Of a stretch of DNA of 7,334 bases, positions 3,285 through 7,164 are shown one piece after another (positions within the stretch are counted from its first letter, which is position 1; every line of letters begins with the position of its first letter). Origin of the DNA: a virus. Its lineage: Duplodnaviria; Heunggongvirae; Uroviricota; Caudoviricetes. The notes under the pieces were generated by a model. The model saw nothing but the letters and a program-made list of their open reading frames with translations. It did not search any database and was not told the origin of the DNA. The stretch lies in IMG/VR virus record IMGVR_UViG_2639762982_000003; one strand, given 5' to 3'. A program made the position numbers and the translations under genes.

Positions 3285-3359
<75 letters not shown>

Positions 3360-3362
3360 ATA

Positions 3363-3438
<76 letters not shown>

Positions 3439-3440
3439 AC

Positions 3441-3517
3441 TGGACCGCCACCGGGGACTCGAACCTCGCACACTCAACTTAAAGGGTTGACGCTCTTTCC
3501 TGATGAGCTAGTGGCGG
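3441..3517 (-). tRNA. tRNA-like gene, anticodon loop CCUUUAA (UUU, Lys, in canonical register); non-canonical, possibly a pseudo-tRNA
   Basis: 77-nt cloverleaf: acceptor CCGCCAC/GTGGCGG, U8 A9, D-stem GCTC/GAGC, perfect 5-bp anticodon stem TCAAC/GTTGA, T-loop TTCGAGT, encoded CCA. Position 33 is C rather than the near-universal U, and the T-stem has an A-C mismatch. Confidence 0.5.
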
Positions 3518-3518
3518 C

Positions 3519-3594
3519 TGGTGGCCCTTGCTGGATTTGAACCAGCGACCTGGCGATTATGAGTCGCTCGCTCTCACCACTGAGCTAAAGGGCC
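3519..3594 (-). tRNA. tRNA with anticodon CAU, ileX/ileZ-like (tRNA-Ile2 read as AUA after lysidine modification, or elongator Met)
   Basis: 76-nt cloverleaf: acceptor GGCCCTT/AAGGGCC, D-stem GCTC/GAGC, anticodon loop CUCAUAA (CAU), T-stem GCTGG/CCAGC, T-loop TTCAAAT, discriminator A, encoded CCA. Closely resembles E. coli ileX as recalled. Separated from the next tRNA by 1 nt. Confidence 0.75.
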
Positions 3595-3776: not shown

Positions 3777-3805
3777 AATATATGCCTTTCAATCTACTTT
3801 TGCAA
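3777..3805 (-). promoter_or_regulatory. candidate late promoter (PR'-like) overlapping the 3' end of the Q gene
   Basis: Minus-strand -35 TTGCAA (3805..3800), 17-nt spacer containing the Q stop codon, -10 TATATT (3782..3777). Predicted start near 3770; a -10-like TGaTATTTT element at about +6 to +14 resembles the sigma70-dependent pause element used for Q loading in lambdoid phages. Confidence 0.45.
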
Positions 3806-4478
3806 CACTTTGCTTTGAAAATGCCGCCTTTTGTTTTGAACGTGTTCTCATTACAAACAATAAAGCCTCACTATCAAGTCGGTGAAAAATGTGTTTCATT
3901 GCAACCCAGTGACGAGTAAATGTTTTGGACCAGTTTTTAGTTGTCACTCCCGCCAGTAATGCCAGCTCCTGGTATTCATAACCTTCCCCACCAAAAAGTT
4001 CTGCTTTTAATGCCTGCGCCGCCAGCCAGATTAATTTTTTCAGGCGTTCCTGCGTTTTCCCTGCAATTTTTCTGGTACCGGATTGAGTATTAAATTCATT
4101 CCACGCCCACTGTGTTATCGCGATCTGATATTCCCAACAAATACTCCCGCTGTAACACCACAACAACCAGGCTTTATGATGTTCTTCAAGAGACAGAACT
4201 GCCCGTCGCCATGATGATGTCGAAAACTCAACCTGACTTACCAGAGCAATTGATGAGCCTTTCGCCAGTGATTGTTTTCCCGGTATCGGTGGACTATCCC
4301 GCGTTATCATTCTTCCAGTCACTTCATCGCGGTACCGGATTTTTTTACGCCTGTAACGCCCTGTATCAAACATGGCATTCTCCTGCCAGGCTTCAAGCTG
4401 ACCTTTTGTTGCCCCACTCAAATCAGCGGTAGCGATAATGAGCTGCTCACGCACAAACTGTAAATACTGGTTATTCAT
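3789..4478 (-). CDS. putative late-gene antiterminator Q (Qin QuuQ/phage 82-like by position)
   Basis: 229-aa product from ATG 4476-4478 (track ORF starts 2 codons earlier at GTG) with GGAG upstream. Its ATG overlaps the rusA stop (ATGA). Sits immediately downstream of rusA and upstream of a PR'/tR'-like module, tRNAs and the lysis cassette, which is the canonical Q position. The family assignment rests on synteny; only two Cys are present. Confidence 0.6.
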   Translation of the reverse strand: MNNQYLQFVREQLIIATADLSGATKGQLEAWQENAMFDTGRYRRKKIRYRDEVTGRMITRDSPPIPGKQSLAKGSSIALVSQVEFSTSSWRRAVLSLEEHHKAWLLWCYSGSICWEYQIAITQWAWNEFNTQSGTRKIAGKTQERLKKLIWLAAQALKAELFGGEGYEYQELALLAGVTTKNWSKTFTRHWVAMKHIFHRLDSEALLFVMRTRSKQKAAFSKQSVAKVD

Positions 4479-4834
4479 GCGCACTCCAGTTCTGTGATTT
4501 TTATCCCCAGCCGACCACCAGGAACAGGCAGTCCGCGCACAATATTGATTTCATCAAACTGCTCGTCGTCTATGAGAAGTCCGGCATGCGTCAGCGCATC
4601 CAGTGGTGCCTTCAGGATATTGTCCAGGTCGCGGCGGCGCTTATCCGGTGGCTCTGCAATAATTTTTATTGCCAGCCTTCCGGACAGGTTTAATTTCAAC
4701 CGCTGCTGGCGAACAATTAGTGCCACATCACGGCGATAACGCTCACCGACTTTTGATACAAAATATGTGTTGCCACGACGTCGCCAGTAAGTATTCACCG
4801 TCGGCGGATAAGGCAAAACAAACTCTATACGCAT
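4475..4834 (-). CDS. rusA: crossover junction endodeoxyribonuclease RusA (Holliday junction resolvase)
   Basis: 119-aa ORF with ATG at 4832-4834 and AGAGG upstream. Protein aligns by eye with E. coli RusA, including the catalytic RRRDLDN motif and a GGRL C-terminal region. Confidence 0.85.
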   Translation of the reverse strand: MRIEFVLPYPPTVNTYWRRRGNTYFVSKVGERYRRDVALIVRQQRLKLNLSGRLAIKIIAEPPDKRRRDLDNILKAPLDALTHAGLLIDDEQFDEINIVRGLPVPGGRLGIKITELECA

Positions 4835-4846
4835 CAGTAACCTCTT

Positions 4847-5968
4847 TTACCCGAGCACGCCGGTTGCAAAGGCGTGATCAAGAAAACGAAAAATTAAATC
4901 AACCTGGGAACCATGCTTTTCTTCGAACGCCAGCGGATCCGCATGAAGTTCGTTGTGATGTTCCCGGCACAACGGTAGCGTGAAAATATCGTGGGCCTTT
5001 GTTCCCATCCCTCCCTGACCGTGACCAATCAGGTGATGGGGATCGTCGGCTGGCTGACCACAACACGCACACGGCTGTGTCTTCACCCAGCGCGTATATT
5101 TCTCATTTACCCAACGGCGACGTTTAGGTCGCCTCATGAAAGATTCCGGAGACTCCGGATCAACGGTGATGCATACCACCGTCTTTTCCTGTGGTGGGTT
5201 CTGTTGCTGGTGGGCATGAGGCAACGGCGCAAGATTTTTTGTGCGCTGCTTCAGTATGCTGGTGGCGGTCTGCTCTCCCGGTACGATGTCGCTTTCGCGG
5301 TACAAGGAGCGGATTTTTTCCGCACGTACCCCCAGAGAACGACGTAATACTGCCTCCGGAAGCGCGTCCGCCACCTGATTGCAGACCGCCCACCAAGATA
5401 ATTCAGCCAGCGACAATTCCCGCTCCTGCGTGCCATTCATTGCATGGCGTATGACGTCAATCATCCATGCTGACAGGTTTTGATGAGCAAGTTGCCCGAG
5501 TGATTCGGATGTCTGGTCACGCAACTGGTTGTCGCAGTGCCAGCACAACACCATCGCGCTGGTACCGTAACGATGTATGACGATTTCACTGTGATGATAG
5601 TCACCATGAGGCCACTGGCAGGATTTGACATGACGCAACAGCCAGTCAGACAGTGCCCCAGCGCCGCCAGCAGCACGAATCACCCGCTCATCGCTGAAAA
5701 ATGGCAGTAATGATTTATCCTCCGCCAGCGGCTGGCGAACGGCAGGGACGACTCCGGACGGCAGACCGCGCATGCTTTTCGGTTCAGGCTCCACCAGCAC
5801 TCGAGGGTTATGAAATACTTGCATGGATTCACGGCCCGGCCTAAGGACCACCAGCCCGAGTTCCGGTACCAGAACAGGTCGAAGTAATATCCGCACGTTA
5901 CCTCCAGATCCGTTGCTGGTATGTGCGGGATGGGTGCGGTGGGCGTTCGGAATAAGGGAGCCTGACAT
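4847..5968 (-). CDS. DUF968 family protein (Qin YdfU-like) with C-terminal HNH-like Cys/His motif; start codon uncertain
   Basis: 373-aa ORF with ATG at 5966-5968 but weak RBS; alternative ATG at 5822-5824 (Met49). C-terminal region QPCACCGQPADDPHHLIGHG...LCREHHNELH is Cys/His rich and resembles a His-Me finger nuclease. Same position relative to hokD and Q as ydfU in K-12 Qin. The first 71 nt overlap the upstream ORF in another frame. Confidence 0.7.
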   Translation of the reverse strand: MSGSLIPNAHRTHPAHTSNGSGGNVRILLRPVLVPELGLVVLRPGRESMQVFHNPRVLVEPEPKSMRGLPSGVVPAVRQPLAEDKSLLPFFSDERVIRAAGGAGALSDWLLRHVKSCQWPHGDYHHSEIVIHRYGTSAMVLCWHCDNQLRDQTSESLGQLAHQNLSAWMIDVIRHAMNGTQERELSLAELSWWAVCNQVADALPEAVLRRSLGVRAEKIRSLYRESDIVPGEQTATSILKQRTKNLAPLPHAHQQQNPPQEKTVVCITVDPESPESFMRRPKRRRWVNEKYTRWVKTQPCACCGQPADDPHHLIGHGQGGMGTKAHDIFTLPLCREHHNELHADPLAFEEKHGSQVDLIFRFLDHAFATGVLG

Positions 5969-6176
5969 AGATTATCCAGTGACGATAATCGAGGCTGAGG
6001 GCTTTCTTAATCTCGTATCCGCGTCTGCGATAGTTATGAATTAGCCATTCGGCCTGTTCTTCAGTACATGGGTCATGCTGGAACCAGTCAGATTTGAAAG
6101 TGCGGGAACGCCGCCCGTGCCTGCTGGCAAAGACGGCAGAATCATCAGAATTGTGTAATTTGGTATCGTGCGCCAT
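5898..6176 (-). CDS. hypothetical protein (possibly Rem-like by synteny only)
   Basis: 92-aa product from internal ATG 6174-6176 of track ORF 5898..6257; the annotated first codon of that ORF lies inside a terminator hairpin. GC-rich and coding-like, but the RBS is weak and the 3' end overlaps the DUF968 ORF. Confidence 0.4.
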   Translation of the reverse strand: MAHDTKLHNSDDSAVFASRHGRRSRTFKSDWFQHDPCTEEQAEWLIHNYRRRGYEIKKALSLDYRHWIIYVRLPYSERPPHPSRTYQQRIWR

Positions 6177-6250
6177 CGGTTGTCTCTGCTGGCGCAGCAG
6201 GTGCCAGTTGTTCAGGCTGGCGTGCGAATTGTAAACCAGAATGCCAGGAA

Positions 6251-6273
6251 AAAACAAAACCCGCCGAAGCGGG
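6251..6273 (-). terminator. rho-independent terminator downstream of the lipoprotein gene
   Basis: On the minus strand: CCCGC-UUCG-GCGGG (5-bp GC stem, UUCG tetraloop; plus coordinates 6260-6273) followed by TTTTGTTTT (complement of 6251-6259). Confidence 0.6.
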
Positions 6274-6472
6274 TATGCTAAAACAAACTGAAAGTAATAT
6301 ACCGGACTTGTAAAGGAACGATAGAATAATTATTGGATTAAACCCTGACTCAATCCAGATTTCATAGACAACAACTACGGACTAATCATCACAGTCATGT
6401 TTGATAGACTTAGTCCACATTGGGTGAGGGTTTACGGCGTTTTCACTAATAATTTATCGTCCAAGCTATACA

Positions 6473-6865
6473 CTACTGCCCTGTTTTAACGAAGTTTTTA
6501 AAGGAAACAACTGCCTGATAGGGGTTTGGTTGACAGCCAAACATATTATCGCAAAAAGGCTTGATGAAAATTCTTGAGGATCCATCTTCATTTGGCATTT
6601 TACTCACTTGATAAGCGAGGAATGGACTATTTGGAGAGGGATTATAAGTGGAAATTAGCGTGTCTGTCGCCGTTTGAATTTTCCATGAGGAATTATTAGC
6701 CAACCAGAATTGCGCTCGTTTCCAATAAAAGTCACATTGCTTTTCATCATTACATGTTAGTGGCTTCATTGCTTCTGCTTTCAACGCTGGATCGACCTTT
6801 GCTGCACACCCTCCCAACATTACTGTTGCAATCATTACACCTGCAACTAAAACAAGTTTCTTCAT
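6473..6865 (-). CDS. secreted lipoprotein, AT-rich moron-like cargo gene
   Basis: 130-aa ORF with ATG at 6863-6865 and GGGAG upstream. N-terminus MKKLVLVAGVMIATVMLGGC is a classic SPase II signal with lipobox LGGC. The mature part has four further Cys in two C-x5-C pairs. AT-rich relative to flanking genes and bracketed by two similar terminator hairpins. Confidence 0.7.
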   Translation of the reverse strand: MKKLVLVAGVMIATVMLGGCAAKVDPALKAEAMKPLTCNDEKQCDFYWKRAQFWLANNSSWKIQTATDTLISTYNPSPNSPFLAYQVSKMPNEDGSSRIFIKPFCDNMFGCQPNPYQAVVSFKNFVKTGQ

Positions 6866-7008: not shown

Positions 7009-7164
7009 TTACTCCTCAGGTTCGTAAGCTGTGAAGACAGCGACCTCCGTCTGGCCGGTTCGGATTCGTACCTCGCAGAGGTCTTTCCTCGTTACCAGTA
7101 CCGTCACTATGACGGTTAAACAGATGACGATCAGGGCGATTAACATCGCCTTTTGCTGCTTCAT
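7009..7164 (-). CDS. hokD: Hok family type I toxin (HokD/RelF)
   Basis: 51-codon minus-strand ORF not in the track (below its length cutoff): ATG at 7162-7164, TAA at 7009-7011, AGGAGA 9 nt upstream. Translation MKQQKAMLIALIVICLTVIVTVLVTRKDLCEVRIRTGQTEVAVFTAYEPEE matches the Hok/Gef family and essentially E. coli HokD as recalled. Confidence 0.9.
   Translation of the reverse strand: MKQQKAMLIALIVICLTVIVTVLVTRKDLCEVRIRTGQTEVAVFTAYEPEE

Follow-up and report, generated by a model that had tools for sequence, protein, structure and literature searches.

A YdfU-type DUF968 gene read from a GTG start and carrying a C-terminal HNH-like domain beside rusA in a lambdoid Escherichia coli prophage

The window analysed here, a single stretch of 7,334 nucleotides, is the early-right/late-regulatory (nin-like) region of a lambdoid E. 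coli prophage, with its genes on the minus strand throughout. Positions 4700-6400 are 100% identical in E. coli UMNK88 and four other genomes. A 1.7-kb query finds similar DNA in 4560 of 5426 complete E. coli genomes, with at least 80% query coverage in 3045 of them. Read 5' to 3' on the minus strand, the gene order is hokD, a lipoprotein-like gene, a hairpin, a 92-aa open reading frame, the DUF968 gene, rusA and Q, and past Q lie four tRNAs, holins and an M15 endolysin, and a small HNH gene beside terminase genes. The features placed by coordinate are as follows.

7009-7164, minus strand: hokD
6473-6865, minus strand: 130-aa predicted lipoprotein gene, signal peptide with an LGGC lipobox, phrog_16082
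6249-6274, minus strand: terminator-like GC hairpin and T-run, from a consensus scan (ACCCGCTTCGGCGGGT then TTTGTTTTTT)
5898-6176, minus strand: 92-aa gene (phrog_1212), PGAP hypothetical protein WP_032173433.1
4847-5896, minus strand: YdfU-type DUF968 coding sequence, 349 aa, GTG start 5896-5894, TAA stop 4849-4847
4475-4834, minus strand: rusA, Holliday-junction resolvase (Pfam RusA, E 1.8e-15)
3789-4478, minus strand: late-gene antiterminator Q (Pfam Phage_antiter_Q, E 2.2e-89; PGAP coordinates)
3285-3594, minus strand: four tRNA genes that separate Q from the lysis genes: Gly(TCC), Thr(TGT), Lys(TTT) and one with a CAT anticodon
176-526, minus strand: canonical 116-aa HNH endonuclease gene, directly beside a P27-family small terminase

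Four of these genes, from the 92-aa gene through DUF968 and rusA to Q, form a tightly packed cluster of which Q is the last member. As first described, the DUF968 gene sits directly upstream of rusA, which starts 12 nt downstream of the DUF968 stop and carries its own AAGAGG. The terminator-like hairpin, a strong one, precedes the 92-aa gene by about 70 nt, and the cluster may therefore need read-through or antitermination for its expression, as the lambda nin region does. Between hokD and this nin-like cluster, the 130-aa lipoprotein gene may be a moron; its product has no NCBIfam or PADLOC match and shows a very weak similarity to the Cor superinfection-exclusion protein (E 0.007). At the other end of the window, the CAT-anticodon tRNA is called Met by ARAGORN and Ile by PGAP, and the 116-aa HNH gene is presumably packaging-associated and unrelated to the DUF968 gene.

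The DUF968 gene has been annotated correctly and belongs to a known family that is widespread and uncharacterised. Its product scores 257.9 bits against DUF968 (PF06147), far above the gathering cut-off of 27.8 and across profile positions 1-171 of 171, which bears out the family assignment of the preliminary description; phrog_96 matches at E 2.3e-174. No match was found in NCBIfam or PADLOC, PDB sequence searches with the protein and with a 35-sequence profile returned nothing even at E 10, and a literature search found no experimental data on YdfU-type proteins. Homologues occur in viable phages, including Stx-converting phages, SfIV, ST64B and Ayreon. The closest named relative, K-12 YdfU (b1560, Qin cryptic prophage), is itself uncharacterised and is 86% identical over all 349 aa. 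Its gene is likewise placed between the hokD region and Q, although Qin, unlike the window, has no rusA between ydfU and Q. Across genera, 47 of 80 Enterobacterales loci have a rusA homologue no more than 3 kb from DUF968, on either side. The proximity of DUF968 to RusA and Q had been pointed out earlier (PMC5714182), and the same work groups DUF968 with YbcO/DUF1364 in His-Me finger group 7.

Several records within the family are irregular. Five sequences at 49-86% identity (L086, L090, L098, L137, L142) are filed as Veillonella parvula, Geobacteraceae, Chryseobacterium, Vagococcus and an Actinomycetes MAG, a taxonomic oddity that likely reflects contamination or mis-binning of assemblies. 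Single-sequence variants P0001, P0002, P0003 and P0007 have stretches of 30-100 residues repeated in tandem within the protein, in some cases taking in the CxxC/RPK region; these may be assembly artefacts or recent duplications. Apparent fusions of the N-terminal domain to tail-fibre, J-protein and portal domains (P0266, P0311, P0312, P0245, P0369) were considered as a functional clue and set aside, as they look like prophage deletions or chimeric assemblies.

The open frame at 4847-5968 (minus strand) has 373 codons and begins at an ATG, just as first described, and the true gene is its last 349 codons, starting at GTG 5896. On the minus strand the junction reads GGAGG (5905-5901), TAA (5900-5898), C at 5897 and GTG (5896-5894). 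Two features at this site complete the gene model.

5901-5905, minus strand: Shine-Dalgarno GGAGG, 4 nt upstream of the GTG and inside the last codons of the upstream gene
5897-5968, minus strand: spurious 5' extension of the 373-codon frame, coding only in the upstream gene's frame

The preliminary description took ATG 5968 as the annotated start while remarking on its poor ribosome-binding site. The remark holds, since no Shine-Dalgarno sequence precedes that ATG; the start does not, since PGAP, on the identical RefSeq sequence of UMNK88, calls a 349-aa protein from GTG 5896, and K-12 ydfU is annotated from the same GTG behind the same GGAGG-TAA-C-GTG junction. The start missed at that stage is this GTG, with its strong GGAGG, beside the stop codon of the upstream gene. 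The ambiguity arose because the longest possible open frame had been taken. An open reading frame at 5898-6176 in another frame does exist, but the 71-nt gene overlap ascribed to it is a product of that choice: the real genes do not overlap, with 1 nt between TAA 5900-5898 and GTG 5896.

Comparison of the window with 80 related viral contigs (81 close loci) places the start at the same codon. A GTG stands at the homologous site in 81 of 81 loci, preceded by GGAGGTAA[C/T] in 79 and by GGAGATAAC in the other 2; the pattern TCTGGAGGTAA[C/T]GTG recurs in those 79, with GGAGA in 2. ATG 5968 is present in only 7 of the 81, the codon otherwise being CCG, ACG, CAG or CTG, and in 71 loci the frame has no in-frame start upstream of the GTG at all. 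Substitutions in the overlap (5968-5901) fall at codon positions one, two and three in the proportions 5/9/20 when read in the upstream frame and 9/20/5 when read in the DUF968 frame, giving Nei-Gojobori dN/dS values of 0.14 and 3.85, respectively. Over the 24 codons after the GTG the relation reverses, with dN/dS of 3.35 in the upstream frame and 0.31 in the DUF968 frame. The substitution patterns thus place the frame switch precisely at the GTG. Downstream of it the gene is intact in all 81 loci, at 348-350 codons, and is under strong purifying selection (whole-gene dN/dS 0.10).

More distant sequences agree. Position 1 of the phrog_96 profile aligns to the GTG residue, and 34 homologues of 25-85% identity align from residue 1 through a conserved MRxLLxP...LGxVxLKPG segment. 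The cross-genus set of 80 loci from different Enterobacterales species, gathered by a profile search of genome contigs with 17 closer sequences, has GTG (39), ATG (37) or TTG (3) at the homologous start in 79 loci, often with an in-frame stop 0-12 nt upstream. Against this, a 373-aa protein initiated at ATG 5968, with its first 71 nt overlapping the upstream frame out of register, has a very slim chance of being correct. It yields the longest frame, and automated gene calls of 375-377 aa do exist, nearly all in one-member clusters and one in a cluster of 19, but the lack of a Shine-Dalgarno sequence, the presence of the ATG in so few loci, the absence of coding selection in this frame ahead of the GTG and the agreement of family profiles and distant homologues on the GTG as first residue already refute it.

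Initiation at Met49 of the long frame (ATG 5824), which would give a 325-aa protein and which the preliminary description had offered as a possible true start, is equally improbable. That ATG occurs in 77 of the 81 close loci, but the codon is ATA (Ile) in the other 4 and in K-12 YdfU, other homologues carry Ile or Leu there, and no Shine-Dalgarno sequence stands ahead of it. The 24 codons it would exclude are those that show coding-type selection in the DUF968 frame only; their residues are conserved in distant homologues and form beta-strands in the structural model at pLDDT 91-94. Alignment with homologues, the check originally proposed for the N-terminus, has the conserved domain beginning at the GTG residue and not at Met49, and this candidate too is refuted. 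The gene model is therewith settled: the RefSeq 349-aa GTG form is right, and the 373-aa, Met49 and fusion forms should not be propagated.

The upstream frame at 5898-6176 is an independent 92-aa gene, which was one of the options first listed. The phrog_1212 profile matches its product through to the last residue, and its family comprises 152 clusters, all from Escherichia/Shigella and mostly 90-92 aa long; searches of NCBIfam and PADLOC gave no match. Weak homologues in Citrobacter, Enterobacter and Pluralibacter have rusA or about 360 nt between them and DUF968. A separate family, the lack of frame constraint and distant copies set apart from DUF968 together mean that the two frames are independent genes. 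In K-12 MG1655, an intact 92-aa homologue (MARNAKYYNSD...QQRIWR; NC_000913.3, complement(1644306..1644584)) lies between rem and ydfU, ends 1 nt before the ydfU GTG and is without annotation in the RefSeq record. BLASTP of the 92-aa and DUF968 proteins against the full set of lambda nin-region proteins (NinB to NinI, plus Q) returned nothing meaningful.

The preliminary description also entertained one gene joined across 5898-5968 by a programmed or mutational frameshift, and this has next to no chance of being right. A single 438-aa sequence (P0041) does read through the junction as ...TFQQR-MRVLLRP..., but it is unique and needs a deletion of about 13 nt removing IWR-stop and the spacer. The TAA and the +1 offset are kept in 81 of 81 close loci and in 7 Escherichia/Shigella genomes, the upstream family ends at that TAA, and in other genera the small gene stands apart from DUF968. 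The two frames are not both selected across 5968-5901, where the DUF968 frame is without coding constraint, and no Rfam element was found at the overlap. As a general mechanism, frameshift fusion is already refuted. The geometry of two genes with a 1-nt gap between stop and start suggests instead that they are translationally coupled.

An AlphaFold2 model of the DUF968 protein, built on 35 sequences with a mean pLDDT of 88, predicts two domains joined by a partly disordered linker. They map to the DNA as follows.

5327-5896, minus strand: N-terminal domain, aa 1-190, containing a beta-beta-alpha zinc module
5519-5620, minus strand: zinc/beta-beta-alpha core of the N-domain, aa 93-126 (C93, H101, C118-W-H-C121-D122-N123)
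5162-5326, minus strand: linker, aa 191-245, Gln/Pro-rich and partly disordered
4850-5161, minus strand: C-terminal His-Me finger (HNH) domain, aa 246-349, including a basic RPKRRRW segment
4943-5071, minus strand: catalytic and zinc motif, aa 276-318, identified by residue conservation and by its match to Gp16

The C-terminal Cys/His region was found as first described (C-A-C-C ... DPHH ... C-R-E-H-H-N-E-L-H), and its reading as a zinc-stabilised His-Me finger nuclease finds support in the sequence, the predicted fold, the conservation pattern and the way the family has been classified in print. The motif runs C276-x2-C279, D284-D-P-H287-H288, K300, D303 and C310-R-E-H313-H314-N-E-L-H318, and the CxxC ... 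Cxx[H/C] pattern is that of the zinc-finger HNH subclass. In the model, an alpha-helix comes after a beta-hairpin, and the fold resembles that of solved superfamily members; the putative general-base His ends strand 1, and putative metal-binding His/Asn/Asp residues sit on the helix. The catalytic His pattern that was to be checked in this domain is conserved. Among 114 distinct homologues, the zinc-site residues are kept in 114 (C276), 105 (C279), 107 (C310) and 104 (H or C at position 313), and the putative catalytic residues in 111 (H288), 114 (D303), 110 (H314) and 109 (H318). This domain has the lowest dN/dS in the gene, 0.046. The HNH reading is already published at family level.

Profile evidence for a narrower class is fainter. 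HNHc_6 (PF16784) scores 21.9-24.7 bits, under its cut-off of 26.6 and over only profile positions 123-174 of 204; some close homologues carry a precomputed PF16784 match, and the N-terminal Orf/NinB-like domain of HNHc_6 proteins is absent. RecA_dep_nuc (PF16786), the Pfam model of the P1 Ref family, gives a weak signal under the gathering cut-off. The best structural match of the C-terminal domain is phage P1 Ref, in a Foldseek comparison with the PDB where no match was significant (best E 0.6).

The closest studied relatives come from these two groups. The HNHc_6 protein Gp16 of the staphylococcal phage PhiNM1 has been shown to be a RecA-binding nickase whose activity RecA stimulates (Xu et al., NAR 2026, PMC12817073). 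Gp16 shares 37% identity with the C-terminal HNH of the window protein across 59 aligned aa (E 3e-9), exceeds the Pfam DUF968 cut-off, and has the identical CxxC-9-H spacing and CREHHNExH motif, with LCREHHNE(L/Q)HA common to both. Gp16 C145/C148/H157/C181/H184/H185/H189 match the window motif residue for residue, with H157, H185 and H189 aligned to H288, H314 and H318, and both PhiNM1 and the window prophage have rusA in the same early region. P1 Ref (PDB 3PLW) is an HNH endonuclease that depends on RecA, without a second zinc module, which PMC4330346 describes as a 186-aa protein with a disordered basic N-terminus.

Other phage proteins resemble the DUF968 protein in part. P1 PdcB (AF234172.1, 88955-89875) is a full-length YdfU homologue that matches aa 32-348 at 28% identity (E 3e-29). 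It is non-essential, and its gene comes immediately before the late activator lpa, much as the DUF968 gene precedes Q. P1 encodes both PdcB and Ref. YbcO/DUF1364 (DLP12, phage 82; PDB 3G27) is a bare His-Me finger of about 96 aa without detectable sequence match to the DUF968 protein, and is uncharacterised, its nuclease role being predicted only (PMC4999995). Lambda NinG (Rap), a branch-specific endonuclease of His-Me finger group 24 (PMC5714182), is encoded at the corresponding place, immediately upstream of Q; it has a different architecture and no BLASTP similarity, and is a plausible functional analogue.

A non-catalytic DNA-binding or regulatory factor, acting for example with Q and using the HNH fold only as a zinc finger, is an improbable reading. 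The gene always lies beside a late regulator, be it Q here or lpa for PdcB, several phage records label the protein 'antitermination protein Q', the catalytic His is lost in a few distant members, and zinc-site mutants of Gp16 have stronger phenotypes than catalytic-His mutants (PMC12817073). Weighing more heavily, 109-114 of 114 homologues retain H288, H314, H318 and D303, which lie within the most constrained domain of the gene, the homologous Gp16 domain cleaves DNA in vitro (PMC12817073), and the protein has no similarity to Q families. The 'Q' labels, found in LR597642 (Evi), KF030445 (1720a-02) and OR565852 (phiNP), look like annotation errors carried over from the neighbouring gene. The distant members in question (P0327, P0344, P0375; 26-29% identity) have lost DPHH and the helix histidines while keeping the N-domain zinc site, and may be catalytically dead derivatives.

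A nuclease directed at the host or at competitors, through host takeover, superinfection exclusion or anti-defence and not recombination, is about as doubtful. Gp16 arrests host growth and replication (PMC12817073), P1 Ref is reported to raise ciprofloxacin lethality (PMC4713147), and cryptic prophages such as Qin retain an intact copy of the gene. It nevertheless has no PADLOC match and belongs to the replication/recombination-to-Q module, not to a moron locus, with linkage to rusA across genera. Far less credible still is a terminase-associated HNH for cos cleavage and packaging: a packaging role is common among phage HNH proteins (background in PMC12817073), but it is the canonical 116-aa HNH gene that adjoins the small terminase, while DUF968 lies upstream of Q in the early region. 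The role most likely to apply is that of an accessory nickase or endonuclease of the zinc-HNH type, working alongside RusA on intermediates of recombination or replication.

The N-terminal domain, which no Pfam model covers, looks like a second HNH-like zinc module in the predicted structure. C93 and C118 are present in all 114 homologues, position 101 is H or C in 112, position 121 is C or H in 114 and D122 is kept in 109, while the model places strands at 105-110 and 113-118 and a helix at 119-125. H102, the counterpart of the general base, occurs in 53 of the 114 and is retained in the Escherichia lineage. The module is probably non-catalytic. A profile-profile comparison of the two domains set the cysteines in the expected register without reaching significance (E 0.053, probability 1%), so internal duplication stays a suggestion drawn from the predicted structure. 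The linker between the domains is the most relaxed segment (dN/dS 0.22), with pLDDT below 50 at aa 229-240.

Taken as a whole, the explanation that fits best, and that is held with good confidence, comprises two genes, a GTG 5896 start, a two-domain protein and a recombination-linked HNH nuclease. The 92-aa gene and the 349-aa DUF968 gene are separate genes read in succession, followed by rusA and Q. DUF968 initiation at GTG 5896 uses the GGAGG inside the last codons of the upstream gene, ribosomes ending at TAA 5900-5898 would probably re-initiate there, and the 24 codons upstream of the GTG, ATG 5968 included, go untranslated in the DUF968 frame. In the protein, a zinc site of C276, C279, C310 and H313 is predicted to hold the C-terminal domain, H288 is likely the general base, and H314, H318 and D303 would lie at the metal site. 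Since the catalytic His is not conserved in the N-terminal module, that module probably binds DNA or a partner protein. The enzyme would most likely nick or cut DNA that is branched or associated with recombination while the phage replicates and recombines, sharing a pathway with the RusA resolvase encoded next to it. By analogy with P1 Ref and PhiNM1 Gp16, it may be stimulated by RecA. The analysis establishes the gene boundaries, the start codon, the class of fold, the conservation of the catalytic residues, the purifying selection and the rusA linkage, and from these the nuclease activity, its substrate, a dependence on RecA and the coupling are inferred.

A more elaborate version is possible, if rather unlikely. 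YdfU-type DUF968 proteins would be tandem-HNH proteins whose N-terminal module works with the active C-terminal Ref/Gp16-type HNH, binding or cutting both DNA strands at D-loops formed by RecA or at stalled forks, then passing the products to RusA, with the translationally coupled 92-aa protein as a dedicated partner or regulator.

These results would hardly surprise a specialist, and their additions are modest: a rigorous proof of the start codon, the connection with Gp16 and Ref, and the HNH-like module of the N-terminal half, which is a minor new finding about structure. The Gp16 and P1 Ref connection gives an uncharacterised family a testable hypothesis, in which YdfU-type proteins would be zinc-HNH nickases, possibly stimulated by RecA, that act with RusA.
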